Positions 5,068 to 46,386 of a stretch of 64,000 bases of DNA are shown one piece after another. Numbering within the stretch: the stretch's first letter is position 1; each line of letters opens with the position of its first letter. Location: contig JBDQJC010000001.1 in NCBI GenBank assembly GCA_040264055.1, positions 11,845 through 75,844 of the forward strand, read 5' to 3'. The translations under genes were made by a program, and so were the position numbers. Origin of the DNA: Planctomycetota bacterium. GTDB lineage: Bacteria > Planctomycetota > UBA1135. Below the pieces are notes generated by a model. It ran no database searches, had not been told where the DNA came from, and saw nothing but the letters and a program-made list of their open reading frames with translations.

Positions 5068-5107
5068 AACGGGCCGGCTCTGTGAAGAGCCGGCCCGTTG
5101 TCGTTTT
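5068..5107. terminator. Bidirectional intrinsic terminator between convergent genes
   Basis: Perfect 14-bp stem aacgggccggctct / agagccggcccgtt with loop gtga. A T-run (5104-5107) follows on the + strand and tttgt follows on the - strand. It lies between the stops at 5045 (+) and 5117 (-). Confidence 0.8.
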
Positions 5108-5116
5108 CAGTCTGGA

Positions 5117-6697
5117 CTAGTTGATGTTCAGAATGATCATGTTCGAATCGTAAGTCGCGCCACCACTGGTTGCGAAGACTTCGACGTAAACCCGCAGGCC
5201 GCGCGCGCGCGTCGGCAGCCCCTTGGTGAAGGATCCTGCGCCGGCCGCACTGTTGCTGCCTTGACCGACCTTGATACTTGGGCTGCCAATGTTGGCGTGC
5301 TGACCACCGATCGAAGAACCGTAAGGGTTCAGCGAGTAGCGGAACTCCCAAGGCGAGCTTGCAGGTGCGCCGGTCCAGCTGTAGCTGACCGAACTGCCGG
5401 CGTTTGCCGAACCTGGGCCCGTCATCGCGATCGTGTTGGTCACACCGTACTCAGCCTCACTTGCTTCACGCATGGCACGGAAGAAGTTCGGACGGCCGTG
5501 GCCCGACTTCTCGTCTTGGCCAGTTCCTTCGATGTCGACACAGGTCGAGAACAGCATGCCCTCAATGTCGTCCGGCGAGCCGCTTGGGTGTGCAACCATC
5601 ATCATGGCGATCACGCCGTTGACGATTGGTGCCGAGAAGCTGGTGCCCGAGACTGCGCCGTTGCCGCCACCGTTGGTGGTGGTGCGCACGCTTTCGCCAG
5701 GAGCGGCCACATCGACCCATGGGCCGTAGGTGCTCCAGCTGGTGACGTTATCGCTTTGGTTCGTCGCCGAAACAATGATGACATCGGCGTGGTTCGAGCC
5801 ACTGACGCGGTTGCCACCGTTACCAGCCGACCAGCACAGCAGCGAGCCTTCGTTCTTCAGGTGCGCACCCGTGGTTTGCACACTGCTCGAGTTGCCACCG
5901 GAGTAGCTCACCGAGACCGAACGGGCGCCGTTATCGGAAGCCCAGCGTGCGCCATCGGTCAGGTTGGACAGCGAAGCGCTGCCATTCGAGTTGTTGGTGC
6001 AGCGTACGGGCATCAAATTGATGTCCCAAGCCATACCGACCACGCCGTTGCCGTTATTGCCGATCGCACCGACACAGCCCAAGGTTGCGGTGCCGTGACC
6101 ATTGATGTCGGCAACCGACCCGCCATTGGCTTGCGAACGACGCGAAGCCGAGTTGTAACCCGAAACGAGGTTTGCTTCGAGGTCTGGGTGATCCAGGTCG
6201 ACACCGGTGTCGACGGTGCAAGCAATGAAGGTCGAGCTACCGAAGCCGAAGTCCCAGGCCTTTTCCGACTTCATCTTGCCGTGCTGCCACTGGTTGCCAA
6301 AGGCGGGGTCGTCCGGGGTGGTTTCGGTCAGGTAGCAAAGCCAGTCGGGCTCGGCGTACTGGTATTCGCCAGTCGCGAGCAGCCATTCGGCCAAGCTGTT
6401 TTCGTCGTGGCCTTCCGGGATGATCAGAACGGTCTCGTTGGTGTCCGCGACGTACTCCTTGATGCCCCATTGCTGGGCGCGCTGAGTGGCGCGACGGTTG
6501 AGTTCGAGCGCGTCGGAGCGGCTCATGCCTTGCTCCATCAGGTCCGCTACCTGCAGCGGGCGAACGATCAGGCGGCCGGTGAATTCGGTCACGCCAGGTG
6601 TCTCGACATAGCGCGGGGCCGCATTTTCGAGTTGTTGAGCCATGGAGCTGCCCAGAAGGAGCAGGCCGGCGGCGGTGGTGGTAAGGAAGTGCTTCAT
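5117..6697 (-). CDS. Secreted S8 (subtilisin-family) serine protease with shared C-terminal module
   Basis: Signal peptide MKHFLTTTAAGLLLLGSSMA. Catalytic triad contexts: TVDTGVDLDHPDL (Asp), NGHGTATLGCVG (His), SGTSFSAPIVNGV (Ser). The C-terminal ~105 aa match the tails of four other secreted proteins in the window. Confidence 0.92.
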   Translation of the reverse strand: MKHFLTTTAAGLLLLGSSMAQQLENAAPRYVETPGVTEFTGRLIVRPLQVADLMEQGMSRSDALELNRRATQRAQQWGIKEYVADTNETVLIIPEGHDENSLAEWLLATGEYQYAEPDWLCYLTETTPDDPAFGNQWQHGKMKSEKAWDFGFGSSTFIACTVDTGVDLDHPDLEANLVSGYNSASRRSQANGGSVADINGHGTATLGCVGAIGNNGNGVVGMAWDINLMPVRCTNNSNGSASLSNLTDGARWASDNGARSVSVSYSGGNSSSVQTTGAHLKNEGSLLCWSAGNGGNRVSGSNHADVIIVSATNQSDNVTSWSTYGPWVDVAAPGESVRTTTNGGGNGAVSGTSFSAPIVNGVIAMMMVAHPSGSPDDIEGMLFSTCVDIEGTGQDEKSGHGRPNFFRAMREASEAEYGVTNTIAMTGPGSANAGSSVSYSWTGAPASSPWEFRYSLNPYGSSIGGQHANIGSPSIKVGQGSNSAAGAGSFTKGLPTRARGLRVYVEVFATSGGATYDSNMIILNIN

Positions 6698-6891
6698 CTA
6701 CGTAGAGTTTCTTCGGGGGATCGGTTCAGAACCTAGGAGGCCGACGGGGGGAGCGCGGGCTTCGTTCCCACAACCTAGTGCGCCAAACGGCGTCAGCCCT
6801 CAAACAATGGCAGGGAATTGTTGCAGGGTGGGCCCCCGGTCCTGCCGAGGCTGAATGGTAGCCTCAAAACGGCGATCCGCCCACGCCATCC

Positions 6892-7638
6892 ATGCAGCTC
6901 CCCGCGCCCGACACTTGGTACAACCACCTCGGGTACTTCGTTTTCGCGATCGAAGACGAATCACATTGGACAAGGTGGGGATATGGGCTGAGCGAGTTCC
7001 TTCCGAGTTGGATCACCCGGGTTCTCCACGGCGCGGTGTTGCTTTGTGTCGGCGTGCTTGCGTTCGTGGGGGTTCGTCTCCCATGGCTGGTGCCTCCGCT
7101 CGCCCGGTTGACTGGTGCTGTGGGTCTGCTTGCTAGTGCGGCGATCGTTCTCGGGGTCACGGGCTGGCCAAGCTATGTCTGTTTCTATTCGTGGCCATTG
7201 GTCGGCGGGTGCTTTCTCATGATTTGGCTGACGAGGCCAGCTCCGGGGCGACGCACCCAGTGGTTCCGAACCGCGATGCTGCCGGTGTTGGTGCTGTTGA
7301 GTCCGGACATGATTGTGCTCACCGTCGACCCGCCGGAGTTGTTCCTCATCGCGTCCCCCATGCTTCCGGTGCAACTGTTGAGTTTGGCGGCAGTCATTTG
7401 GATTCCGCCACTTGAGCCAAACAAGTTGCGAATCCTCGCTCGTCGGATGATCCCGCTGCTGCTGCTTCCCGTGCTTGGGGTGTACTTGGTGAACTGGGCC
7501 GGATTCCTCGATCAGGACTCCCCGCATTGGGTGGTCCTTTTTGTTCCGTTGTCAATTCCTGCGTCTTGGATCTGGGTGGCGGCGTGTCTTCGTCAGAGGC
7601 GGAAGCCGACTGACCCGGTCCCCCTCCATGCCGCGTGA
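6892..7638 (+). CDS. Polytopic membrane protein of unknown function (paralog 1)
   Basis: 248 aa. Short soluble N-terminus (WYNHLGYFVF...TRWGYG) followed by about 6 hydrophobic helices. Paralogous to the next gene (shared ...RPA...R...DP... segment). Confidence 0.7.
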   Translation: MQLPAPDTWYNHLGYFVFAIEDESHWTRWGYGLSEFLPSWITRVLHGAVLLCVGVLAFVGVRLPWLVPPLARLTGAVGLLASAAIVLGVTGWPSYVCFYSWPLVGGCFLMIWLTRPAPGRRTQWFRTAMLPVLVLLSPDMIVLTVDPPELFLIASPMLPVQLLSLAAVIWIPPLEPNKLRILARRMIPLLLLPVLGVYLVNWAGFLDQDSPHWVVLFVPLSIPASWIWVAACLRQRRKPTDPVPLHAA

Positions 7639-8498
7639 GCGCAGCGCGATTTCAACAATCAGGCGAAGGCCCCACCACGCCGACGCCCTACCCGGACGGC
7701 TTGATCACGCATCATGCCGACGGCACGATCACCTATCCCGATGCTTATACCGGCGAGCGCTTCGTGCAGCCGGGCGACGAGTGGTATCACGCGTTTGGAT
7801 TCCACTACGACGCGAGCCACGACTTCCCGGATTACGCAATGTGGGAATGGTGGGGGATCGGCTGGCCCAAGGCCGAGCCGCCTCAAGCCCTTGTCGATCT
7901 GCTGTTTCTCTGCTTTGTCTATGGCTCGCTCCTCTTGCCCATTCTCTGTTGGGCGCGAAGTAATCGACTTCAACCCGCAGCAAGCTTGCTTGCCTGGGTG
8001 GGAGTTTGTTTCTCGGCAGTGCTGATCTGGTTTGACGATGGCGATATGTACTTTGTGGACCTCGCTCGGTTCACGATGCTCTGCGCGGCCAGCTTGCTGT
8101 TTCTCGCCAGGCCGGCGCGATCGGTTCTGCGAGGGGTGTTGCGCTACGTGGCATTCAGCGCGCTGCTCTGTTTTCCAGGCGTGGTACTTGCGGTCATCGA
8201 TCCAGGCACTTGGATGAGTAATAAAATCCTTCTCAGTTTCGGTGCCTGGGCGGCACTTCTCCCGCTTGCAGTTCTCCCGGAAGTGAACTGCAGCAAGCAA
8301 GAGCTCGCCGCGTTTCGCCGTCGCGGCCTTCTTGTCGCGAGCATCCTCCCGGTGTCTTCCTACTACCTTGAGAACGCATGGGGAGTGCGTGCCTCTCAGG
8401 CTTTCCTCCCGTGGGTGATCATCGCGCTTGGCTTGGCAGCATGTGTCATGATCTTTCGCAACCGCAGCGGTCAATCGGAGCCACCGCTTGCAAGCTGA
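7635..8498 (+). CDS. Polytopic membrane protein of unknown function (paralog 2)
   Basis: GTG 7635 overlaps the upstream stop (GTGA). The N-terminus WYHAFGFHYD...WEWWGIG parallels paralog 1. About 6 TM helices. LLFLARPARSVLRGVLRYVAFSALLCFPGVVLAVIDP aligns with FLMIWLTRPAPGRRTQWFRTAMLPVLVLLSPDMIVLTVDP. Confidence 0.7.
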   Translation: MSAARFQQSGEGPTTPTPYPDGLITHHADGTITYPDAYTGERFVQPGDEWYHAFGFHYDASHDFPDYAMWEWWGIGWPKAEPPQALVDLLFLCFVYGSLLLPILCWARSNRLQPAASLLAWVGVCFSAVLIWFDDGDMYFVDLARFTMLCAASLLFLARPARSVLRGVLRYVAFSALLCFPGVVLAVIDPGTWMSNKILLSFGAWAALLPLAVLPEVNCSKQELAAFRRRGLLVASILPVSSYYLENAWGVRASQAFLPWVIIALGLAACVMIFRNRSGQSEPPLAS

Positions 8499-8729
8499 GC
8501 ACGACTGCTGGGGTCCGAAGCCGCAGAGTCGCTACAAACCGAGGCGCTTGGGCTCGACATGATTGAGGTGCGCCGGGTGAACTCGCTAGTACAAGAGTCG
8601 GCATGCCTTTTTCGCATTCCCTACTTTGCGCCGCGGCCCCACCTGACTGAGACCCCAAGTTGGCGGCCGCTATGGATAGATCACCGCTCAACCTGGAAGC
8701 GGCCGGCGCGGTGCGGATAGAATCCACGC

Positions 8730-9647
8730 ATGGCCGCGACCGATCTGAAATGTGAGCTTTCCTGGTCGGCGAGTCGAGCCAAGGAGTTCGAGCGCTGCAA
8801 GCGGGAATACTGGTATTCGCGCTACGCCTCATGGGGTTGGTGGACCGAACGCCCGCGCGGCGAAAAATTCCAAACCATGGTCCACAAGAACTTGACCTCG
8901 CTGCCGGCTTTCACTGGCGATGTCATCCACCGCGCGATCGAACGCTGGTTTGAACTCAAGCGGGCAGGCTCGGTCATGAATGCGGCCGAGCTGATGGAAG
9001 AAGCCGTCAACCTGTTTCGCATGGGATGGCGTCAATCGTCGACCGATGCCTGGCAAGAACGGCCGAACAAGTCGACACACCTCTTTGAGCATCACTACAA
9101 GTTCGACATTAAGGCCGAGCGCACCGCGCACTCGCGGAAGCTGATCGAGGTCGCGACGAAGTTTTTCTGCGAGTCACCGCAGCTCGCGCCGGTGCGTGAT
9201 GTTCCAGCTGAAGATTGGTTGTCGGTCGAAACGCTCGACACCTATCAGTTCCTCGGCACCAAAGTCTATGCGGTGCCCGACTTCGCCTATCGCGTCGACG
9301 AGAAGGTGCACATCTGGGATTGGAAGACTGGCAAGCCGCGCGAAGACGACATCTTTCAGCTGCATACCTATGCGCTCTATGCCTGCGAGAAGTGGCAGAC
9401 AGACCCGGAGGACATCATCCTGTACGCCGCGTATCTGGGCGAAGAGAACGTACAAACCATCCAGGTTGAAATCGAGAAACTTTCCGAAGCACAAGACCGC
9501 ATGTCGATGTCGCTGCGCGAGATGATGGATGTGCACTACGACCCCGACGTCGACGATTTGATGATGCAGAACTGGCCGGCAAGCGGCGCGCCCGACGGCT
9601 GTCGTTTCTGTCGCTACAAAGGGATGTGCCCCGATGCTGCTGTTTAG
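8730..9647 (+). CDS. PD-(D/E)XK nuclease, Cas4/AddB-like with 4-Cys Fe-S signature
   Basis: Motifs: AVPDFAYRVDEKVHIWDWKTGK (D...D/ExK) and QLHTYALYA (QhxxY). One N-terminal Cys (FERCKREYWY) plus the C-terminal CRFCRYKGMC (CX2CX5C), as in Cas4/AddB-type iron-sulfur nucleases. Confidence 0.8.
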   Translation: MAATDLKCELSWSASRAKEFERCKREYWYSRYASWGWWTERPRGEKFQTMVHKNLTSLPAFTGDVIHRAIERWFELKRAGSVMNAAELMEEAVNLFRMGWRQSSTDAWQERPNKSTHLFEHHYKFDIKAERTAHSRKLIEVATKFFCESPQLAPVRDVPAEDWLSVETLDTYQFLGTKVYAVPDFAYRVDEKVHIWDWKTGKPREDDIFQLHTYALYACEKWQTDPEDIILYAAYLGEENVQTIQVEIEKLSEAQDRMSMSLREMMDVHYDPDVDDLMMQNWPASGAPDGCRFCRYKGMCPDAAV

Positions 9648-28914: not shown

Positions 28915-28958
28915 ACGCAAAAAGCCAACGCCTCGAATGAAGCGTTGGCTTGTTGCGT
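28915..28958. terminator. Long hairpin between convergent genes (possible terminator, no clear U-tract)
   Basis: 17-nt arms acgcaaaaagccaacgc / gcgttggcttgttgcgt (16/17 paired) with a 10-nt loop. Located between the stop at 28879 (+) and the stop at 28982 (-). Confidence 0.4.
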
Positions 28959-36975: not shown

Positions 36976-37083
36976 GCCGGCCGAGTGAAGAGGGATGCGA
37001 TCAAGCTCGAGCCTTGATCCGCTCTGACGAGATTGAATTCTGCGGCTATTCTGGGGGATCCCCCTGAGCCGACAGGTTCACCC

Positions 37084-39315
37084 ATGCTTCTCACTCTTCT
37101 GCTTTCCGCTCTTGCGGCGCCCGCGGCACAAGCCGACGGCGTCATTCTTCAAGCCAAGGTCGATCCAGGCGTCAACTGCAATGACATTTGGGGCTACGTC
37201 GCTCCGAATGGCGATGAGTACGCGCTGGTAGGCACGACCGCGGGCTTGGTTGTCTACAACTGCGTGGACCCGCAGGCTCCGTACCAGACCGCGTTCATTC
37301 CCGGTCCGCCCTCGTTGTGGCGCGATGTGAAAGCCTATGGCAACTACGCCTACGTGGTGACCGAAGGCGGTGGGGGCATTCAGATCGTTGACTTGAACGA
37401 TCCCGAGAATCCGAGCCTGGTCAAAACTTGGAAGCAGAACGACTTCACGAACGCGCACAACATTGCCGTCGATGAAGGCACGGGCATCTTGTATGTGAGC
37501 GGCACCAATCGAGGTACGCGCATGTACGACGCTGCGGCAAGCGCAGAATCGCCGCCGTACGTTGCGAGTTACAACAGCGAGTATGTGCACGATTTGCACA
37601 TCCAAGATGGTTGGGCGCACTTGGCCGAAATCTACGATGGCCGCTACCGCATTCTCGATGTGAGCAATCTGTCGAATCTGCAAACGCGCGACCGTCAGCA
37701 GACTCCGGGGCGCTTTACCCACAGTGCTTGGGCGAATGAAACCAACACTCTGTGCATGACCACCGACGAGGTCGGTGGGGGACGGGTAGCGTTGTACGAC
37801 ATCAGTCAGAAGACCAACATTCGCTACCGCGATGACTGGACTCCGGATGTGAATACGATCCCGCACAACGCCTTCATTTTGGGCGACTACGCTTACGTCA
37901 GCTGGTACACCGAGGGCTTGATCGTGCTCGATATCAGTGATCCGTACAACATCAAGAAGCACGCGAGCTATGACACTTCGGCTTACACCGCCGGCGCGGG
38001 CTACCACGGTGCGTGGGGCGTTTATCCCTTCCAACCTTCCGGAAACATTTACATCTCGGATATGGAAGAGGGCTTCTACATCTTGAAGGTAGAGGGCCCG
38101 GCGATTGAATTGGATCACACCGAGTTGACCAACACCCAAGACGAGGTCGGCCCCTACGATGTGTCGGTCGAGGCGCAGCCGTTGTTTGCGAACTCGGACG
38201 TGACCGGAATCGACTTGTGGTACCGCGTCGATCGCGGCTCCTGGCAGCAGGTCGCGCTGAATGAAGTCGGCAACACCGATGAATGGGTTGGTTCGATCCC
38301 TGGTCAGCCTTCAGCCTCGATCGTGGAGTACTACTTCAACGCTTCGGAATCGGGTGGCCGGACCGCTTGGCTTCCGAATGGCACCTCGGCGGGATCACTG
38401 ATGTACAGCTTCTATGTCGGCACGCCGATGCGCGTGTACTTCAACGATTTTGAGGGCACGGGCGACGAAGGTTGGACGCACGGCTCCACCTCGGGTGGCG
38501 ATGACTTCCAGCGCGGCGTGCCGCAGGGCAAGTCGGGCAATGCAAGCCGCCACGAGGACACGCGTTGGTACGACCCAGATGTGGCCTACTCGGGCAGCAA
38601 GATCTGGGGCAACGACCTCGGCAATGGCGGCGACGGCGCCTACCTCGAGAACGCCTCGATGTGGCTGCAGTCACCACCGATGGATTGTTCCAGCGCGAAT
38701 AACACGACTTTGATCTTCCGTCGCTGGGCCTCCTTTGAAGGCGGCGGCAACGACCAGGCCAAGATTTGGGTCAACGGCAACCAGGTTTGGGTGTCTCCGC
38801 AGTACAGCGGCGAGATCTTCCACATCACGGACCGCATTTGGACCCAGGTCGTGATCGATATTTCGGATTACGCGGATGGCGTTGCCAACACGGTGGTGCG
38901 CTTCGAGCTCGAGAGTGATGCTGCCTTCCACATGGGTGGTTGGGGCATCGACGATTTCGAAGTGGTTGCGCTTGATGCCGGTGAGCCGACCGACACGATT
39001 GATTTGACTGGTCCGACCAGCGCATCGGTGGGGCAAAACGTTTCGTACCAGATCAGCAATGCTCCGGCGAATCGTCCTTACTTCTTCGCCTGGAGTCTCA
39101 ACCTGAATGGTGCCGTGGTTCTGGGTCATGATCTGGATCTGGGTGCGCCGTACACGGTTGCGGCTTCGGGACAGACGAATGGTTCAGGTGCGGCAACGGT
39201 GAATGCGACGATTCCATCGGGAGCTTCGGGACGTACGATCTACTTGGAAGTTGTTGGTGTCACGCCTAGTGGTGAATTGCGTGATTCGGCTCCGCTGACT
39301 TTGGTCGTGCAGTAG
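37084..39315 (+). CDS. Secreted LVIVD-repeat / choice-of-anchor-B-like beta-propeller protein with shared C-terminal module
   Basis: Signal peptide MLLTLLLSALAAPAAQA. DIWGYVAPNGDEYALVG, GIQIVDLNDPENP, GLIVLDISDPYN (LVIVD-type repeats). The C-terminal ~105 aa align closely with the tail of the S8 protease. Confidence 0.85.
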   Translation: MLLTLLLSALAAPAAQADGVILQAKVDPGVNCNDIWGYVAPNGDEYALVGTTAGLVVYNCVDPQAPYQTAFIPGPPSLWRDVKAYGNYAYVVTEGGGGIQIVDLNDPENPSLVKTWKQNDFTNAHNIAVDEGTGILYVSGTNRGTRMYDAAASAESPPYVASYNSEYVHDLHIQDGWAHLAEIYDGRYRILDVSNLSNLQTRDRQQTPGRFTHSAWANETNTLCMTTDEVGGGRVALYDISQKTNIRYRDDWTPDVNTIPHNAFILGDYAYVSWYTEGLIVLDISDPYNIKKHASYDTSAYTAGAGYHGAWGVYPFQPSGNIYISDMEEGFYILKVEGPAIELDHTELTNTQDEVGPYDVSVEAQPLFANSDVTGIDLWYRVDRGSWQQVALNEVGNTDEWVGSIPGQPSASIVEYYFNASESGGRTAWLPNGTSAGSLMYSFYVGTPMRVYFNDFEGTGDEGWTHGSTSGGDDFQRGVPQGKSGNASRHEDTRWYDPDVAYSGSKIWGNDLGNGGDGAYLENASMWLQSPPMDCSSANNTTLIFRRWASFEGGGNDQAKIWVNGNQVWVSPQYSGEIFHITDRIWTQVVIDISDYADGVANTVVRFELESDAAFHMGGWGIDDFEVVALDAGEPTDTIDLTGPTSASVGQNVSYQISNAPANRPYFFAWSLNLNGAVVLGHDLDLGAPYTVAASGQTNGSGAATVNATIPSGASGRTIYLEVVGVTPSGELRDSAPLTLVVQ

Positions 39316-39363
39316 TTGGCGCAGTTTTTGGGATTGAGCTGGTCATGCGGCTTGGTTCACGGT

Positions 39364-39395
39364 CGACCCCCGCTTTTTGCGGGGGTCGTTTTCTT
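39364..39395 (+). terminator. Rho-independent terminator of the LVIVD gene
   Basis: Perfect 10-bp GC-rich stem cgacccccgc / gcgggggtcg with loop ttttt, followed by ttttctt. Confidence 0.9.
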
Positions 39396-39402
39396 GATGG
39401 GG

Positions 39403-39485
39403 TGTCCGGATCGGATGCGCGACGTTCGCTTAACTGCCGCAAAGCCGGCAGATGCGCTCACTTTGCGCGCATCCGATCCGGACAC
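39403..39485 (+). repeat. Hairpin repeat element, copy A (83 nt)
   Basis: 20-bp perfect outer stem gtgtccggatcggatgcgcg ... cgcgcatccgatccggacac. Inner hairpin ctgccg-caaagc-cggcag. The internal-loop sequences are identical to copy B. Confidence 0.9.
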
Positions 39486-39795
39486 GCGATCATGCAATCG
39501 GGTTCCTGCAAACGGAGTGGTGTGGCGCGTCTGCCGTCATGTTTGCTTCGCAGAACGCGCGGCCCAGTCGTACCAACCTTTTCAGCACGCAGTTGCCCCA
39601 TCTTCCATTCCGATCGCATGCGAGGTCGCAAAGACTTCTTCCATGCAACGGTTGATAGGCACAGTCAATCGGATAGGCGCAATCCAAGTCGAGACGCCAC
39701 GATGCGCCGGTCCCACGACTTCCGAATCGCACCACCAAGCAATCATGCGCTCGATCGACTCGCATCAACCGTAGCGTGGATGTGAAGTGGGTCCT

Positions 39796-39881
39796 GTGTC
39801 CGCATCCGAAGCGCGCAAAGTGAGCGCATCTGCCGGCGAAGCCGGCAGCCTAAGCGAACGTCGCGCTTCGGATGCGGACAC
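39796..39881 (-). repeat. Hairpin repeat element, copy B (86 nt, inverted relative to copy A)
   Basis: The reverse complement reads gtgtccgcatccgaagcgcg acgttcgcttagg ctgccggc ttcg gccggcag atgcgctcacttt gcgcgcttcggatgcggacac. Its three outer-stem differences from copy A are each compensated on the opposite arm. Confidence 0.9.
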
Positions 39882-39904
39882 CCAAACCCAATCAACAACA
39901 ACCC

Positions 39905-41515
39905 CTACAAGATCACAAAGTTGATCAACCGCGTTGCAGCAACCGGAGCCTGACTCGCCACCCAAGCCTGCATCCAAACCTGCAGCCCACTCGTCCGACT
40001 CGGAATATTCAACTTCACTTGTCCATCGCCGGAAGCTGAAACATCAACCTGACCCACATAAATCAACGGGTCGGCAAGATCGAGGCCGGGGCTGCCAGCA
40101 GGTGCGGCATTGCCCGGTCCATCCAGGCTCACTTCCACGCGATAGCTCGAAAACGGAATGCCGTCGCTGATCGTCAGCGTGGCGACTCCGCCCGCGACGG
40201 CATTCTGCACTTGCAGCGCAGCCAAAGCGGGCCCGCGTCGGGTGGCGACCAAGCCTTCTTCGAGGCTGCCTCCGCCGGGCGCCCCAACAAGAAACTCGTT
40301 CATGCCATCGCCGTCAAGATCTTGATGCAATGGAGCAATCGACTCACCGAAGCGTTGTTCGGCGGTATCTCCTTTCAGTTCGATCAGAAAGCGCCCGCTC
40401 GGTCCGGAAAACACCCGCAAAGCGCCCGCGCCAAATCCAGCGCCACCGAAGTAACTTGCCAAGGGTGCGCCCACGATCAGGTCCAGCAAGCCATCGCCGC
40501 TGATGTCCGCCGCCGCCAAGCTCATGCCAAAACCTTCACCAGCGGCTTCCGATTCGACGCTCGCAACCAAGCTGCCGTCTGCGCCACTGCGGATTTCGGC
40601 GTAGCCTTCGTAGCCCTCAAAGTTGTTGGCGTTCAAGACGCCGCTTGCAGCAAAGTCGGGCACGCCATCACCTGTGACGTCTTGCATGGCGACTACTTCG
40701 GTGCCAAAGAAAGCGTCGCGAGAACGTCCGGGTACGCGCAGCAGCAAGGCTCCGGTGCGCCCGGAATACAGCTCGACCGCACCGGCCTCCTTGTAGCCGC
40801 TCTCGCGCAGCGGCACGCCAACGGCGAAGTCAGGGCGGCCATCGAAATCGATGTCGCCGACGCTACACACAGAGGAGCCAAAGCGGTCCCATACCTTTGT
40901 GCCGCGCAAGGTATGCAAAGCGCGACCATCCGCACCCGAATAGACAAAAACCGAGCCAGTGCCGATGCCGGAAAAGTCGTCGTCCGGCGCACCCACGATC
41001 AGATCGTCGAAGCCATCGCCGTTGACGTCCCCGGCCGCCGCGAGCGCATGACCAAATCGATCCCAATTGCGCGCGCTATGAAAGCGACGCAGTTCGCTTC
41101 CATCGATCCCTGAATAAAGCACAACCATGCCGCTCGGGTAGCGGAAGGGATTGTCGCGACGAGCCGAGGCCGCGTAGTCTTCGACGCCATCGCCATTGGC
41201 ATCGCCCGCCGGAGTGACCAGAAAACCGAAGCGGTGATCCACGCCGAGCCCGTCGTGGCGGCGCAGCACACTGCCGTCGGCACCAGAAAGAAGGTAGGCG
41301 GCGCCTGCGTTTTCAAAGGAGTAGTCGGCCAAGCCAGCTCCGACCAGCCAATCAGCGACGCCGTCGCCACTGAGATCAGAGATCGTTGCAACTGCTGCGC
41401 CGAAGCGGTCTCCGGGAGACTCCCCGTCGATCTCGAGAGTCTGGGCAGACGTAAGACTTGTGCTGCTGGCAAGGCAGATTGCCCAAAGAAGGGGGCGGGG
41501 AGTGTTGGACAGCAT
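39905..41515 (-). CDS. Secreted FG-GAP/VCBS (integrin-alpha-like) repeat protein with shared C-terminal module
   Basis: ATG 41515 gives the signal peptide MLSNTPRPLLWAICLASSTSLTSAQ. Seven or more FG-GAP units (GDRFGAAVATISDLSGDGVADWLVGA, DRFGHALAAAGDVNGDGFDDLIVGAP, etc.), then the shared tail. Confidence 0.88.
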   Translation of the reverse strand: MLSNTPRPLLWAICLASSTSLTSAQTLEIDGESPGDRFGAAVATISDLSGDGVADWLVGAGLADYSFENAGAAYLLSGADGSVLRRHDGLGVDHRFGFLVTPAGDANGDGVEDYAASARRDNPFRYPSGMVVLYSGIDGSELRRFHSARNWDRFGHALAAAGDVNGDGFDDLIVGAPDDDFSGIGTGSVFVYSGADGRALHTLRGTKVWDRFGSSVCSVGDIDFDGRPDFAVGVPLRESGYKEAGAVELYSGRTGALLLRVPGRSRDAFFGTEVVAMQDVTGDGVPDFAASGVLNANNFEGYEGYAEIRSGADGSLVASVESEAAGEGFGMSLAAADISGDGLLDLIVGAPLASYFGGAGFGAGALRVFSGPSGRFLIELKGDTAEQRFGESIAPLHQDLDGDGMNEFLVGAPGGGSLEEGLVATRRGPALAALQVQNAVAGGVATLTISDGIPFSSYRVEVSLDGPGNAAPAGSPGLDLADPLIYVGQVDVSASGDGQVKLNIPSRTSGLQVWMQAWVASQAPVAATRLINFVIL

Positions 41516-41642
41516 TTTTAGATGAGAACACAAAGTTCGCAGATTCGCTACATGGTGCGAGGCTGGATTCGCTGGAGGCGGCGCTAGGATCGTCCCAAGA
41601 AGAGGATCGCGTCGCGCAGATGTGCCCGCTCCTCGTTTGCTC

Positions 41643-42818
41643 ATGAAGATGTCTGGAAAGCTCTGCGCGGCAGAGGCCTACTCAGCGCAACCCCACACGC
41701 ACTGGGCTGCGCAGGAAGCTGTGTCGAAACTCAGTCTGAGTTTGGGTGGGAGTCCGGACATGGTCCTGGCCTTTTACACCGAACATCATCTTGAGCACGC
41801 GCATCAAATCGCTGACGAAGTGCGTCGTTCGCTTGCGCCCGACGCTTTCGTCGGGGCTTGCACCAGCGGCGTGATTGGCGATGGCCACGAGCACCCCTTC
41901 GGTCCTGGCCTGACGCTTTGGGGCGCGCGCGTGCCTGGCGCGCGGGTGCAAGCCTTCGACCTTCAAGTCTCGAAGAAGGGCAGCCGCGGTTATGTGCGTG
42001 GGTGGCCCGATGTTGGCCCGGAAGCGAGTGTTCTGCTCTTCGTCGATGAAGCGGGCTTCCCGCTCGACCCGTTCCTGCATTCGCTCCGCGGGGGCAGTCG
42101 TTTTCCAACGATCTTGGGCGGCATGGTGCCGCACGGCGAAGAAGGCGAGGCGCGTTTGCTGGTCGATGGCGTTGCGCACGATTCGGGCGCTGTTGGCATC
42201 GTCATGGACGGCGCAGCGCGATTCGAACCCGTGGTTGCGCAAGGGTGTTGGCCGGTTGGTCCCTCCTTCCATATCACGCGCTGCGAACGCAACATTGTCT
42301 TCGAGCTAGATGGTGCTCCGGCCTACGACACGCTGACCGAGCTGCTCGACACTTTGCCGGATGACGAATCAGAACGATTCCGTACCGCGCCGCAAGTTGG
42401 TCTGAAGCAGGACGACCGTCAGGAAGACTCCGGGGCGGGTTCCTATCTCGTGCGCGACATCGTGACCTTGCTGACGCATGAGCGCGCGCTCGCCGTCAGC
42501 GAGCCAGTCGAGAACGGCATGCAGTTGCGTTTTCACGCCAAAGATGCACTCGCCGCGCACCGCGAGCTCGAGAGCATGTTGCGCCTGACTAGTGCGTTTC
42601 ATCCGAAGCCAGCAGGCGCGCTGTTGTTCACTTGCGCGGGCCGTGGTCGCCCATTGTTTGGCCGCCCGGATCACGACATTGACCTGGTGCAGACCTATTG
42701 GCCCGAGGCACCGGTTGGCGGCTTCTTTGCTGCTGGCGAGATCGGCCCGCTCGGCGGCAAGCCACACATTCACGCCTTTACCGCGAGCTTAGGTTTGCTG
42801 GTTCCGGCGCGTCCTTAA
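41643..42818 (+). CDS. FIST (N+C) sensory domain protein
   Basis: About 390 aa with a FIST_N / FIST_C-like layout (MVLAFYTEHH..., ...GALLFTCAGRG..LFG..DHD..., GFFAAGEIGP). Its 3' end overlaps the convergent kinase gene by 41 nt. Confidence 0.7.
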   Translation: MKMSGKLCAAEAYSAQPHTHWAAQEAVSKLSLSLGGSPDMVLAFYTEHHLEHAHQIADEVRRSLAPDAFVGACTSGVIGDGHEHPFGPGLTLWGARVPGARVQAFDLQVSKKGSRGYVRGWPDVGPEASVLLFVDEAGFPLDPFLHSLRGGSRFPTILGGMVPHGEEGEARLLVDGVAHDSGAVGIVMDGAARFEPVVAQGCWPVGPSFHITRCERNIVFELDGAPAYDTLTELLDTLPDDESERFRTAPQVGLKQDDRQEDSGAGSYLVRDIVTLLTHERALAVSEPVENGMQLRFHAKDALAAHRELESMLRLTSAFHPKPAGALLFTCAGRGRPLFGRPDHDIDLVQTYWPEAPVGGFFAAGEIGPLGGKPHIHAFTASLGLLVPARP

Positions 42819-44172
42819 GTTGCTCTCGGACAAAGTTGCGGAAGGTCTCCGGCCGGAAGGGCTTGGCCAAGAAAGCGCCATCGATGGCTTGCTCCCCCGA
42901 GGCGTGTAAGCCACCACGGGAATAACCCGAAACGAAGGCGATGCGAGTTTGTGGTCGACACTTCCGCCAAGACTGCGCAAGTTCGACGCCGGTCATGCCG
43001 GGCATCACGACATCGGTGACGAGCAGGTGAACGTCGCCAGCATGGCTTTGTGCAATGGACAGAGCCTGTGCTGGGCTCGATGCAGCCAGGAGTTCCCATT
43101 CCTCGTCCTCGAGCGCGCGTTGCATCACTTGCAAGACGGCGGGTTCGTCGTCGCAAAGGACGACGGTGGCGCGCGTGTTGTGCGCCGAGTCGGCGGTTTC
43201 CGGCGGCACGCTCTCTGCGCGGCTCCGCGGCAGGCGAATCAGGAACTCACTTCCCTGTGCCCCGGCTTTGCCGACCTCGATCACTCCTCCCGCTTGTTGC
43301 ACAATCCCGTGCACGGACGCAAGCCCGAGCCCGGTCCCACGACCAGGGTCTTTGGTGGTGAAGAAGGGATCGAAGATGTGCGGGAGCACATCCGCAGGAA
43401 TTCCGCAGCCGTTGTCGCGGACTCGCAGTTCGATCTGATCGGTCGTTTCTTGGACAGCGCTGGTGGGCCCTTCCTCAGCCTCGTCGCTCGAGCCCAAGAC
43501 CCGCGTGGAGAGCTCAATCCTGCCGGATTCTTCTAGCGCGTCGCGCGCATTCAGGACCAAGTTCATGATGACTTGCTCGAGTTGGCCGGGGTCGATCAAC
43601 GCGCAAGCTTCGGGGGCTTGCAGATCAAGAGAGAGCTCGATATCGCCGGGCAGGAACTGGTGAAGCAATCCAGAGATGTCTTGGATTGCATCATCGATGA
43701 CGACCGCGCAAGGGCGGCTAGGTTGTTCGCGACTAAACGCAAGCATCTGCTGAGTCAATCGCGCAGCGCGTTCGCCGGCGTCACGAATGCGATGGAATCG
43801 TTCGCGCAGTCTTGGATCGTTGCTTGCCGATTCTCCCAAATCAGCTTCGCCGAGGATTGCGGTTAAGATGTTATTGAAATCGTGTGCGATCCCACCTGCG
43901 AGTCGGCCAATCGACTCAAGTCGTTCGGACTGACGCAGCTTCGCTTCCAAGTGTTCGCGCTTCGCCATGTCGGAGAGCAAGCTCGACAGCGCTTGTCGCA
44001 GGTCTTCGGTGCGCGCCTCCACTTCGCTTTCAAGTCGATCGCGTGCCGTGGCAAGTGCAGCAGTACGAGAAGCCACGAGTTGTTCCAACTCAGATCGCTT
44101 GCTGCGCTGACGATCAAATCGCCTGCGCAGAATCAACACCGCAATCAAGCTACCTGCGCCAATCAAGGCCAC
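42778..44172 (-). CDS. Hybrid histidine kinase portion (TM helix, coiled coil, HisKA, HATPase_c, receiver)
   Basis: GTG 44172 with TM helix ALIGAGSLIAVLIL. H-box GGIAHDFNNILTAILG, N/G boxes LNARDAL, DNGCGI, GTGLGLA. C-terminal REC (VVLCDDE...LLVTDVVMPGMTG...KPF). In frame with the upstream sensor ORF across a single TAG. Confidence 0.9.
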   Translation of the reverse strand: MALIGAGSLIAVLILRRRFDRQRSKRSELEQLVASRTAALATARDRLESEVEARTEDLRQALSSLLSDMAKREHLEAKLRQSERLESIGRLAGGIAHDFNNILTAILGEADLGESASNDPRLRERFHRIRDAGERAARLTQQMLAFSREQPSRPCAVVIDDAIQDISGLLHQFLPGDIELSLDLQAPEACALIDPGQLEQVIMNLVLNARDALEESGRIELSTRVLGSSDEAEEGPTSAVQETTDQIELRVRDNGCGIPADVLPHIFDPFFTTKDPGRGTGLGLASVHGIVQQAGGVIEVGKAGAQGSEFLIRLPRSRAESVPPETADSAHNTRATVVLCDDEPAVLQVMQRALEDEEWELLAASSPAQALSIAQSHAGDVHLLVTDVVMPGMTGVELAQSWRKCRPQTRIAFVSGYSRGGLHASGEQAIDGAFLAKPFRPETFRNFVREQLKDAPEPANLSSR

Positions 44173-44217
44173 CCAAGTTCCGGTCAGTTCAAACCAAGCG
44201 GCACGAAAGTGCAGAGC

Positions 44218-46386
44218 CTACGTGCTGAGAACCTCCGACCAAACGCCGTCGCGGTTTGCTGCACGAACCAGGAATCGATAGTGCCCAGGCGGCAAGCTTT
44301 CGTAATGCGCAAGCTCACGATCGCCGGCGTCTACCCAGTCCGAGTCACGCCCTTCGAGCATGTACTGATAGCGGACCAAGTGAGGATCAATGAAGGTAAT
44401 GGCGCGATAGTGAACCAGGAGGCCGCGGTCCTCCGGGTGGACCGATTGCGCCGAGCCCTCCAAGAGATCCGAGCGATTCGTCGAAAGCCGAACAAACTTC
44501 AGCATTGGGGCGGGCAAGAGTGAGCGCGCCGCGCTTGGCGAAAATCGCGCGGCCGTGAGCAACGCAGGAAGAAAAACTTCTCCGCTGGCGGTGCGGCTTC
44601 CGGCGGGCATCGCGCCACCCATACCTTCGAACTCGGGGACACCCGGAAGCTGATCGAAGACCCGCGGAGTGGCATGGTGTTGCGGGTCGCTTTCAAGGCC
44701 AACGACATCTTTGGCACTCAGCAGGGAGATGCCGCGGTTTCCGAGCAAGAGCAAACATCCGTCGGCTTCGGGAAGAATGCGATGGACCACATTCTCGTGC
44801 AGCCCTTGATCCACGGACAGCAACCGAATTTCTCCGTCTGGACGGATCAAGCTGAGGCCGCCCCCGTAATGCCCAAGCCAGGTGACGCCATTGTCCCGGA
44901 AGTGGATCTCGCGCACCTCTCCCATGGCGAGCTCGCGCTTGCTCGTGAGCCGCCGGGTGATGGTTCCGCTTACGTCGAGGACCGCGACTCCGTCGCGCGC
45001 GCCAATCCATAGCTCACCCTGTGGATCCAAGGCAAGCTTGTGGATCATGCCAAGGTCGAGCCCGTCGCCTTGACTCCAGGTCCGTGCCACGTTTCCGTCT
45101 GCCGAAAACTGCACGAGATTGTTTCCGCAACTGCCCCACCAGACCAGTTGTTCATCCTGCAAGAGCGTCAAGGTGGGGCCAGCGGGCAGCGCGGCCGGAG
45201 GCACGAGCGTGTCGAAGTGATCGAGGTGCAGCCGGAGCAAGCCGTCCGCTTCAGAAAGTGCATAGGTGTACCCATCCGCCCCGGAGGCCAAAGCTTGCAC
45301 CCGTGCCTCATGGGAGACGCCTTCGCCTGAGCGCGAGAAACGCTTCAAGGCGCCCGCGTACTGTCCAATCCAGACCGTGTCGGGATAGTGGCGATCTTCA
45401 ATCGCGATCCGTGGCGTATCGGCATGGAACTCGGGATGCAAGATCGCTTGCAGCGGTCGCTGCCGTAATACGCTGAGGCCACCGCCTCCGAGCCAGAGCG
45501 AACCCTCGCGATCGATGAGGAGTGCGCGGCTCTGGAGTTGCGGTACGGTTCGGAGGTCTTCCGCGGCAAGCGTGGAGAAAAACTGCCCATCGCGAAAGGC
45601 GAGAGGGTTCCAGCCGCCAATCCAAATCGTTCCGTCCTCGGACTCGGCGATCGCGCGGATTCCACCGTTATCCACGGGCGAGACGAATCGCTGCAGTGAG
45701 CCATCTGTATCCAACTTGAGTAGGCGAGTATGGTGGTCGCCCGCCCAAACGCGGCCGCTTCGATCCACGTGCACACAGTCGACCGATTCTGAGTACATTA
45801 AGTCGATTGAGCCGTTGCGCAAGCGGCGCAGCCCTTCTCCTGCGATCCAGACCGTACCGTCTGCGCCTTCTGCTGTGGCGAGGCTGCGGCCGAGAGCGAG
45901 GGATTGGAGAATGTCGCCGCTTTCGGACAGTTGCATCACGCCATCTGCATGGGCAACCCAGAAGCTTCCATCTGAAGCTTCCCGAATGTCCATGATGTCA
46001 AATGGCTCGCGGCCATCTGGAAGCGTTAGTCCGACGGACTCAAAGTCGTTCTTGACGAAGCGTCCTAAGCCCTCTCTTTCGGTACCAATCCACAGCACTC
46101 CTCGCCGGTCGGAACAAAGTGCGGTGATGCGTAGAGTCGCCAACTTCCCCCCGTAAGCATGTAACTCGAGCCCGTCGAATACGGCCAGGCCGCCGTGCGT
46201 TCCAATCCAAATCTGTCCGAGCGAATCCGAGGTGATCGCGTTGACTTGGGCTTGCGGTAATCCTTCGCTCAGTCCCCATCGCTCAACCGTTGTCGCAAGA
46301 GGCGTGCTCGCGGGTTCAAGCGGGAGGTCCTGCGGCAGGACCGTTTGCTGAAGGAATCCGAAGAGGAGGGGGAGGAGGGCAACCAT
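44218..46386 (-). CDS. Periplasmic two-component-regulator propeller (Reg_prop repeats) + Y_Y_Y domain; sensor half of a split hybrid kinase
   Basis: Repeats GQIWIGTHGGLAVF, GVLWIGTEREGLGRF, GTIWIGGWNPLAF, GSLWLGGGGLSVL. C-terminal Y_Y_Y-type HYRFLVRAANRDGVWSEVLST, then TAG (44218-44220). Confidence 0.85.
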   Translation of the reverse strand: MVALLPLLFGFLQQTVLPQDLPLEPASTPLATTVERWGLSEGLPQAQVNAITSDSLGQIWIGTHGGLAVFDGLELHAYGGKLATLRITALCSDRRGVLWIGTEREGLGRFVKNDFESVGLTLPDGREPFDIMDIREASDGSFWVAHADGVMQLSESGDILQSLALGRSLATAEGADGTVWIAGEGLRRLRNGSIDLMYSESVDCVHVDRSGRVWAGDHHTRLLKLDTDGSLQRFVSPVDNGGIRAIAESEDGTIWIGGWNPLAFRDGQFFSTLAAEDLRTVPQLQSRALLIDREGSLWLGGGGLSVLRQRPLQAILHPEFHADTPRIAIEDRHYPDTVWIGQYAGALKRFSRSGEGVSHEARVQALASGADGYTYALSEADGLLRLHLDHFDTLVPPAALPAGPTLTLLQDEQLVWWGSCGNNLVQFSADGNVARTWSQGDGLDLGMIHKLALDPQGELWIGARDGVAVLDVSGTITRRLTSKRELAMGEVREIHFRDNGVTWLGHYGGGLSLIRPDGEIRLLSVDQGLHENVVHRILPEADGCLLLLGNRGISLLSAKDVVGLESDPQHHATPRVFDQLPGVPEFEGMGGAMPAGSRTASGEVFLPALLTAARFSPSAARSLLPAPMLKFVRLSTNRSDLLEGSAQSVHPEDRGLLVHYRAITFIDPHLVRYQYMLEGRDSDWVDAGDRELAHYESLPPGHYRFLVRAANRDGVWSEVLST

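Follow-up and report, generated by a model that had tools for sequence, protein, structure and literature searches.

What kind of element is formed by two large hairpins lying in opposite orientation in the spacer between two convergent genes? The question arises from 64,000 nucleotides of Planctomycetota bacterium contig JBDQJC010000001.1, the whole of which was analysed and is called the window below. Here, modules A and B bracket a non-coding core between a gene for an LVIVD-repeat beta-propeller protein and one for an FG-GAP repeat protein. The modules belong to a family in which the outer stem keeps its pairing through compensated changes around a nearly unchanged interior, and they are part of the two ends of an insertion of ~0.5 kb. 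Their positions and parts are as follows.

39402 to 39485, forward strand: hairpin module A, 84 nt, supported by folding, the inverted-repeat search and covariance model R1 (108.7 bits).
Parts of module A: outer stem 39402-39421/39466-39485; 5′ internal segment 39422-39433; inner stem 39434-39439/39446-39451; loop 39440-39445; 3′ internal segment 39452-39465.
39796 to 39881, reverse strand (reading forward on that strand): hairpin module B, 86 nt, covariance model R1 (106.6 bits).
Parts of module B: outer stem 39796-39815/39862-39881; inner stem 39830-39836/39842-39848.

A and B are mutually inverted, each with a perfect 20-bp outer stem enclosing an inner hairpin of 6–8 bp, and they rank as the top two short-range inverted repeats in a scan of the window. 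The initial annotation of this DNA had described such a pair; its coordinates for B stand, and its start for A (39403) is corrected to 39402. Both modules fold far better than shuffled sequences on either strand, as RNA (z −8.4 to −9.8) and as single-stranded DNA (ssDNA; z −7.1 to −9.8). The outer stems of A and B differ at positions 8, 12 and 15, and each difference is compensated in the opposite arm, as had been claimed; in each case the two bases of the pair have swapped sides (twice from G:C to C:G, once from T:A to A:T). A and B also agree in the internal segments ACGTTCGCTTA and ATGCGCTCACTTTG, as the earlier reading had it. The inner hairpin of B exists, though not as the 8-bp stem with a UUCG tetraloop first proposed: CTGCCGG-CTTCG-CCGGCAG can be read either as 7 bp closing a loop of 5 nt or as 8 bp closing one of 3 nt. 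Between the inverted copies A and B, complementarity extends over arms of 42 and 33 nt. Searches with a 19-mer and a 16-mer from the internal segments returned copies A and B only, and an unfiltered covariance-model scan of the full window gave no further copy above 18 bits.

Covarying stems with identical unpaired segments had been taken as the mark of a selected fold. Two copies are insufficient for this claim, which is borne out by relatives of the locus. It should be noted that the relatives are metagenome assemblies throughout (Logan, ENA and JGI collections), in which inverted repeats of at least 50 nt invite assembly breaks and chimeras. The loci are listed below, with the identity of FG-GAP to the window where that gene is present.

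L005 and L027: 90%, ENA and JGI, same strain; hairpin pair around 302 bp.
L001, L002 and L003: 89%, JGI; pair around ~1 kb with decayed IS3/IS407-type orfA/orfB.
L046: 88%, JGI; pair around 3.4 kb with a 957-aa ECF-sigma/CarboxypepD_reg gene.
L004: 90%, ENA; contig ends 175 nt past the FG-GAP stop codon, beyond the first module.
L045, L047, L048 and L049: 87%, 88%, 88% and 91%; contigs end at or inside the first module.
L044: 81%, Logan; contig ends 11 nt past the FG-GAP stop codon, short of any module start.
L006 and L007: 73%; genes 4 nt apart, spacer without the unit.
L026: pair around 331 bp at a second converging junction, between genes for a Ser/Thr kinase and a Gfo/Idh/MocA oxidoreductase (GFO).
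L034: single copy ~100 nt upstream of a VTC-domain gene.
L125, 9425-9511: diverged solo copy, 49 bits with the covariance model.

The further copies sought thus exist: at least six lineages carry the module at the orthologous locus, and it recurs at a second locus and in one diverged solo copy. The family comprises 18 instances, window copies included: 16 plus the cut-off copy of L045 and the solo copy of L125. In L045, the interior is reversed beside the same gene and the arm is quite different. The solo copy lies between converging genes, 10 nt of G/T-rich sequence away from one stop codon and just past the terminator of the other gene. Directly beside it, at L125 9390-9421, is a hairpin CCGCCAC..GTGGCGG preceded by an A-run and followed by a T-run. 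It looks like a bidirectional terminator common to the converging genes for an M24 peptidase and a glutamate-dehydrogenase-type protein; the terminator scan reports only a shorter sub-hairpin there, on the forward strand.

Public collections were scanned with an exact 18-mer from the interior, a kind of search that passes over diverged members, the L125 copy among them. The JGI metagenomes yielded three real contigs (L027, L034 and L026), and all 15 of the 15 matches among GTDB species representatives were due to chance. Viral contigs gave chance 18-mer matches only, and blastn of the interior against PLSDB and phage records was empty; a phage or plasmid origin was rejected on these two results. 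No homologues of the neighbour genes of L026 and L034 were found in the window. The FG-GAP and L026-type neighbourhoods may belong to one clade, as suggested by the closeness in number of the NCBI protein accessions MCH2101453 and MCH2101858.

Conservation was quantified from 14 aligned copies, orthologues included, so that the counts of double changes are not independent events. Outer-helix cells are paired in 96.9% of cases, compared with 82.5% in column shuffles and 26–42% with slid partners. Fifteen of the 20 pairs change on both sides (38 cells), a level reached by 0 of 500 shuffles, and a single one-sided (G·U-type) change is found. The copies carry at least nine different stem sequences. 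By our own count from the table, the alternative pairs are 13 of transversion type and 8 of transition type; this ratio is near the 2:1 expected if any Watson–Crick pair can substitute for another without a G·U route. Across the family the stem is 18–20 bp long, Watson–Crick paired and free in sequence.

The interior behaves in the opposite manner. Its plan is ACGTTCGCTTA..CTGCCG-loop-CGGCAG-ATGCGCTCACTTTG, asymmetric and closed by GCGCG/CGCGC, and the interior (~45–55 nt), the GCGCG/CGCGC stem base and the inner stem are essentially invariant within the main group. Even the solo copy of L125 retains CGT.CGCT and CGCT.ACTTTGCGC, with one inner-stem pair flipped from C:G to G:C. Over the same lineages, fourfold degenerate sites of FG-GAP differ by 45–55% (Jukes–Cantor 0.7–0.98), and non-coding flanks within the unit are only 50–70% identical. 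In at least six lineages, about 50 nt of each module have thus stayed constant next to DNA that diverges neutrally. Since stem pairing survives double changes and the interior is frozen relative to fourfold sites and flanks, we conclude that the fold is selected.

Simpler origins of this pattern were considered. Recent horizontal spread of the whole unit, as a source of the frozen interior, was rejected since the flanks within the unit have diverged like neutral sites. An alternative local hairpin in the 3′ half, GATGCGC/GCGCATC, was rejected since its interior half is constant while the arm changes. Copying of the arms from the target site was rejected as well: the empty site of L125 and the L026a arm share one 8-mer (TCGTCGCG), within chance. 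Arms at orthologous positions can be aligned, in keeping with descent accompanied by compensated changes. In near-identical strain pairs, mismatches cluster in one arm, which holds 3 of the 5 found over 3.4 kb in one pair and 2 of the 33 found over 10.9 kb in another.

The modules are parts of a larger unit, whose remaining features and immediate neighbours are as follows.

39379 to 39401, forward strand: end-A leader, G/T-rich (GCGGGGGTCGTTTTCTTGATGGG), forming the outer stretch of a ~107-nt terminal inverted repeat; it aligns, with gaps, to the end-B leader and to the ends of L026 and L046.
39882 to 39904, reverse strand: G/T-rich leader of end B, GGGTTGTTGTTGATTGGGTTTGG on that strand, abutting the FG-GAP stop codon.
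39486 to 39795, no strand: variable core, 310 bp, non-coding and unique, alignable with relatives only over ~30–75 nt beside each hairpin.
39364 to 39398, forward strand: intrinsic terminator of the LVIVD gene, CGACCCCCGC/GCGGGGGTCG plus a T-run, the hairpin part being 39364-39388 in the terminator scan.
37033 to 39315, forward strand: LVIVD-repeat beta-propeller gene (Pfam LVIVD, 4.6e-13), syntenic in relatives and converging on the unit.
39905 to 41515, reverse strand: FG-GAP repeat protein gene (Pfam FG-GAP, 7.3e-35), converging on the unit; the 536-aa reading fits relatives.

The genes converge as first described, across a spacer of 589 bp (39316-39904) rather than 590 bp. The inverted repeat runs ~23 nt outward of each hairpin, with gaps, so that each end measures ~107 nt and the unit with its leaders ~526 bp (39379-39904), larger than the ~479 bp first given. 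The terminator reported ahead of A is real, and its 3′ arm (a G-run) and T-run double as the end-A leader; it is also kept in L005, L027 and L046. At each of the two loci, both ends have a G/T-rich leader ahead of the forward module, as does the solo copy; in L026 this leader directly adjoins the stop codon of GFO. The leader, the loop form (GCAAAGC or GGCTTCGC) and the inner flank (ATGACYCA.TCA) mark the ends. By loop form and inner flank, the two ends can be told apart, and they are recognisably the same at both loci.

Two empty sites were found. The FG-GAP and LVIVD genes of L006 and L007 meet in a 4-nt junction, and in L125, an 83% relative of the L026 organism, a 35-nt kinase/GFO junction stands in place of the ~545-bp unit of L026. 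Units measure ~500–545 bp in the window, L005 and L026. The two empty sites, together with the distinguishable ends, indicate that the ~0.5-kb unit is an insertion with defined left and right ends; the comparison of syntenic loci for presence or absence, called for at the outset, thus gave a positive answer. The 35-nt empty spacer of L125 (7225-7259) contains a small palindrome, GCGCA-A-TGCGC, and the 4-nt spacer of L006 reads TAG-CGCA-CTA. These resemble the GCGCA/TGCGC stem base, and may reflect a target preference or GC-rich chance.

The DNA between the ends is of a different nature. Core open reading frames (ORFs) have no Pfam match, and blastn of the window core against the related loci collected matches itself only. 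The cores of the window, L005 and L026 have nothing in common beyond ~30–120 nt next to the modules, and the core ends of the window show partial homology near the hairpins to L046, L005 and L001. A coding core was rejected on the missing Pfam matches and the lack of conservation relative to the relatives' cores, in keeping with the earlier statement that no convincing ORF is present. The amount of DNA between modules is 310 bp in the window, 302 bp in L005/L027, ~1 kb with the IS3 relic in L001/L002 and 3.4 kb with the ECF-sigma gene in L046. The L046 protein (957 aa, 6144-9017), found between the modules in that relative only, consists of an N-terminal ECF-type sigma factor (regions 2 and 4) and six CarboxypepD_reg repeats; the window and the other loci contain no homologue.

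Inverted sites that bracket a ~300-bp segment whose content differs radically among close relatives, with an asymmetric conserved interior as for a recombination core, could be the paired sites of a site-specific recombinase, delimiting an invertible segment or a cassette-exchange locus. We consider this very improbable. The inner flanks have the same orientation in all five of the five spanning assemblies (ATGACCCA.. towards FG-GAP and ..GATCATGCA towards LVIVD), and an invertible segment was rejected on this constancy. In addition, neither the window nor the syntenic loci contain a recombinase gene, a solo copy exists and invertase sites are not known to have self-complementary arms.

The relic in L001 (11850-12615) and L002 (4001-4615) bears on another explanation. 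It is a decayed IS3/IS407-type insertion sequence (IS) with internal deletions in orfA/orfB and a right inverted repeat that is itself a relic. An intact relative, L124 304-1570, from the same sample as L002, is 77% identical to it; its IS407-type inverted repeats are TGATTGACCTGACACCC... and ...GGGGGGCAGGTCAA (also given as TGATTGACCTG.../...CAGGTCAA), with no hairpin. The right end of the relic lies within the core, which makes it a secondary insertion and means that the hairpins are not its ends. The hairpins as ends of an IS3-like element were rejected on the repeats of L124, so that the refuting outcome foreseen initially, that the copies are ends of an annotated IS, did not arise.

More generally, the modules could be the ends of an ordinary IS or miniature inverted-repeat transposable element (MITE) of a catalogued DDE family, the stem differences being drift and the arms being kept alike by quasi-palindrome template-switch repair. 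The relic between the hairpins, the small unit with long inverted ends and no transposase, and the Watson–Crick-only arms that template-switch correction would yield are all compatible with this. We nevertheless find it improbable. DDE transposases read the sequence of the terminal repeats, and here the arms are variable and the interior is conserved; drift and repair cannot hold ~50 nt unchanged beside neutrally diverging flanks. The nearest intact IS and the position of the relic argue against it too, as does the lack of a visible target-site duplication.

The reading that we prefer, though tentatively, is that the unit 39379-39904 is an old insertion of a non-autonomous element, REPIN/TIR-repeat-like or MITE-like (the terms are taken up below), whose ends are recognised as folded ssDNA. 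It would have landed in the short spacer between two convergent genes. Each module would act at the DNA level by extruding as a single-stranded hairpin or cruciform, and a structure-specific, sequence-reading protein encoded elsewhere would recognise it through the unpaired interior and mobilise the unit in trans. The protein with the best precedent would be an HUH Y1 enzyme of the RAYT, TIRYT or class-3 TnpA type. Such a protein could give rise to the insertion, the local turnover of the arms and the frozen interior, and the DNA between the ends, being unconstrained, would serve as a sink for other DNA such as the IS3 relic and the ECF-sigma gene.

Several reports provide precedents for these steps. 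Compensatory changes are common in REPIN hairpins (PMC3116915), and the reading of single-stranded REPs by TnpA_REP depends on an irregularity left unpaired together with a 5′ motif (PMC8266576). Long terminal inverted repeats (TIRs) that are partly self-complementary have been reported to flank Y1 genes, and Rhodopirellula baltica has many Y1 genes with flanking repeats (PMC3733652). Class 3 TnpA_Y1 genes occur mainly in Planctomycetes, with 'atypical secondary structures' flanking them (PMC6006769).

Our lean towards the DNA level is based on the near-pure Watson–Crick pairing, the lack of transition bias and the presence or absence of the unit at two loci. Equal folding of the two strands and the reversed interior and deviating arm of the L045 copy point the same way, as does, if only as a hint, the clustering of strain mismatches in one arm. 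RNA stems usually change through G·U, which favours transitions. The inner loop occurs in two nearly reverse-complementary forms, GCAAAGC and GGCTTCGC: the window, L001 and L026 have the former at end A and the latter at end B, whereas L046 has GGCTTCGC and L005 has GCAAAGC at both ends. The presence of the same loop at both ends fits conversion between inverted copies.

Several observations weigh against this preferred reading. Neither the window nor the immediate surroundings of any copy contain a Y1 gene or another transposase or recombinase gene. The GTAG or CGTC tag is absent from its usual position. No target-site duplication was found in L026 versus L125 or in the window versus L006, where 2–3 bp could hide in the diverged flanks. 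The copy number of the module is apparently low: one locus with two copies was seen in 64 kb, and no extra copies in 147 kb of related loci. The clustering of strain differences in one arm is only a hint, and may reflect assembly error, as the L005 assembly looks error-prone. An intact interior at fixed orthologous loci is unexpected for a selfish non-autonomous element; intact resident copies would require either a host-level role, most obviously that of keeping converging transcription apart or bringing it to an end, or a renewal or conversion that the enzyme goes on driving. Lastly, Watson–Crick-only pairing is also expected if an RNA must fold in both converging transcripts.

These last two points lead to a structured RNA in the 3′ untranslated region, acting as a stabiliser, a processing site, a protein-binding site or a U-tract-independent terminator and insulating the converging genes. 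We regard it as a less probable explanation, in which the interior would be a protein- or RNA-binding surface under host-level selection. The RNA fold is strong, and conservation at fixed orthologous loci across a synonymous divergence of ~0.7–0.9 is what a host function predicts. The forward strand is mostly sense to the adjacent gene, following the stop codon after a G/U-rich linker of 10–43 nt with no terminator between (winB, L026a, L026b and the L125 solo copy). Relatives without the unit have only 4 or 35 nt between their converging genes, a spacing at which insulation by such a structure could be of benefit.

However, G·U pairs are nearly absent and no transition bias is seen among the 38 double changes, which is unusual in RNA stems. 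Hairpin A sits downstream of the canonical terminator, so that transcripts of the LVIVD gene would seldom reach it. In L045 the copy is reversed beside the same gene, the inner-hairpin loop takes two roughly reverse-complementary forms, no U-tract follows the hairpins, and an inverted pair with a common leader is the architecture of a DNA element. The Rfam search suggested initially gave no support: a known RNA family was rejected, since no match was obtained in the window at gathering thresholds and permissive settings (E up to 10) returned only generic long-hairpin matches far below threshold, such as one of 32 bits against a cut-off of 268. Among the three candidates originally named, REP/REPIN-like or MITE-like ends are somewhat favoured over a structured RNA.

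A bolder version may also be considered, in which the family is an undescribed folded-ssDNA system that inserts by stop codons between converging genes, whose paired modules capture and exchange cargo, and which may be partly domesticated as an insulator. We think this quite unlikely, and equally so its corollary, that such cassettes or transposons form a system apart from integrons, REP-RAYT and IS200/IS605.

Some observations concern the reliability of the assemblies and the surroundings of the unit. Genes that are intact in relatives (HisKA, Trans_reg_C, FIST) are fragmented in L005 (1626-2453 and 8697-9873), which suggests an error-prone long-read assembly; because of this, the right-hand hairpin of L005, with five unpaired positions, is not to be trusted. 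L047 (~4395 to its end) and L048 (~1985 to its end) turn into poly-C or low-complexity sequence exactly at the expected module start, as if assembly or sequencing had failed at the palindrome.

The 579-aa FG-GAP ORF of the window (39905-41644, reverse strand) is probably over-extended, with a start near 41515, to judge from homologues: close ones (81–91% identical) are mostly 536 aa long, two being 573 and 578 aa, and most start with MLxxTPRPLLWAICL. The nearest homologues are 87–91% identical, and no identical sequence is on record; by its neighbouring proteins, the window falls among uncultured Planctomycetota. A hybrid sensor kinase is one ORF of 1179–1209 aa in L004, L005, L006 and L045, and in the window (42778-46386, reverse strand) it is split into 44218-46386 (Reg_prop/Y_Y_Y) and 42778-44172 (HisKA/HATPase/receiver), a split that could reflect a frameshift, a pseudogene or an error of sequencing. 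Other strong simple hairpins at 5068-5099 (perfect 14-bp stem) and 28915-28958 (20-bp stem, 90%) sit just past the ends of GFO/IDH and CCP_MauG genes and score at most 18 bits with R1; they look like ordinary terminators unrelated to the module. The remaining content is that of an ordinary planctomycete chromosome, with sulfatases, a phosphate ABC transporter with PhoU and SPFH proteins; no transposase, recombinase, integrase or Y1 gene was found in the 64 kb.

For genomics of this clade, the locus marks where the genomes of close relatives differ by whole genes, and short-read assemblies break at the module. The covariance model would be a clean handle for finding the cognate enzyme in complete planctomycete genomes, and the module would offer a natural test of how such elements pick converging-gene spacers.

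How does the module compare with known systems? Integron attC sites are recognised as folded ssDNA, conserve structure over sequence and are attached to variable cassettes. Folded-ssDNA recognition and variable cargo would be points of likeness. On the other hand, attC sites have conserved R and L boxes around a variable centre, the opposite of the module, and are direct and beside an integrase gene; here no GTTRRRY-type box is found at the stem foot, the copies are inverted and the window has no integrase. The ends of IS200/IS605 elements differ as well: their subterminal hairpins lie on the same strand and flank tnpA/tnpB, whereas the modules are mutually inverted with no tnpA or tnpB between or near them.

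MITEs (Correia/CREE, ERIC and MITE-pair composites) are similar in being small, non-coding, intergenic units near gene ends with inverted ends, and the unit has ~107-nt gapped terminal inverted repeats, small size and no transposase. As in MITE pairs, a gene can lie between its ends and perhaps travel with it, an example being the L046 cargo. ERIC likewise shows high cross-species conservation. The differences are that no target-site duplication is seen, that the arms vary around a conserved interior and that the internal region is unconserved among copies. A parent IS with the same ends was not found, the sole IS seen being that of IS3/IS407 type with different inverted repeats and no hairpin.

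TIR repeats or 'TIRtrons', associated with TIRYT enzymes, also have long terminal inverted repeats, some of them self-complementary, that occur as dimers (PMC3733652), although the Y1 gene between the repeats that defines a TIRtron is absent from the unit. Class 3 TnpA_Y1 structures are found mainly in Planctomycetes and Acidobacteria, and the window belongs to the former phylum (PMC6006769). A weak resemblance to them is seen on the reverse strand, with C-n-G-A just before GCGCG in most copies and a heptamer, GTGAGCG, in common with a Planctomyces limnophilus structure, both within chance; the published class-3 structures, at ~26–30 nt, are far smaller than the module.

The closest likeness is to repetitive extragenic palindromes (REPs), including their mosaics (BIMEs) and inverted doublets (REPINs), with the REP-associated tyrosine transposase (RAYT). 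These too are extragenic palindromes between genes, often arranged as inverted doublets, with stems kept by compensatory change (PMC3116915) and an ssDNA fold read via an unpaired irregularity and a 5′ motif (PMC8266576). Insertion of an IS3-family element into REP-type arrays is also known (IS1397, cited in PMC3116915). The inverted doublet is found in the window, L001, L005, L026, L027 and L046, with a spacer of at least 300 bp compared with ~70 nt in REPINs. The module has 84–86 nt with a ~45-nt conserved asymmetric interior, against 20–40 nt for a REP. Its 5′ side is GGG/TGG-GTG(G/T)CC in place of the REP tag; CGTC occurs only within the interior, and GTAG-T stands next to the stem only in the L125 solo copy, on the reverse strand. 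A further difference is the apparently low copy number, with no RAYT gene tied to the module in the window or related loci. Judged by sequence comparison, the module thus appears to resemble palindromic mobile DNA of REP/MITE type while fitting no described family. If this is true, palindromic intergenic mobile DNA (REP/REPIN, TIR repeats and MITEs) would gain an unusual member in a poorly studied phylum, in which specificity is carried by a large asymmetric interior, unchanged while synonymous sites are near saturation, and the stem is left free.

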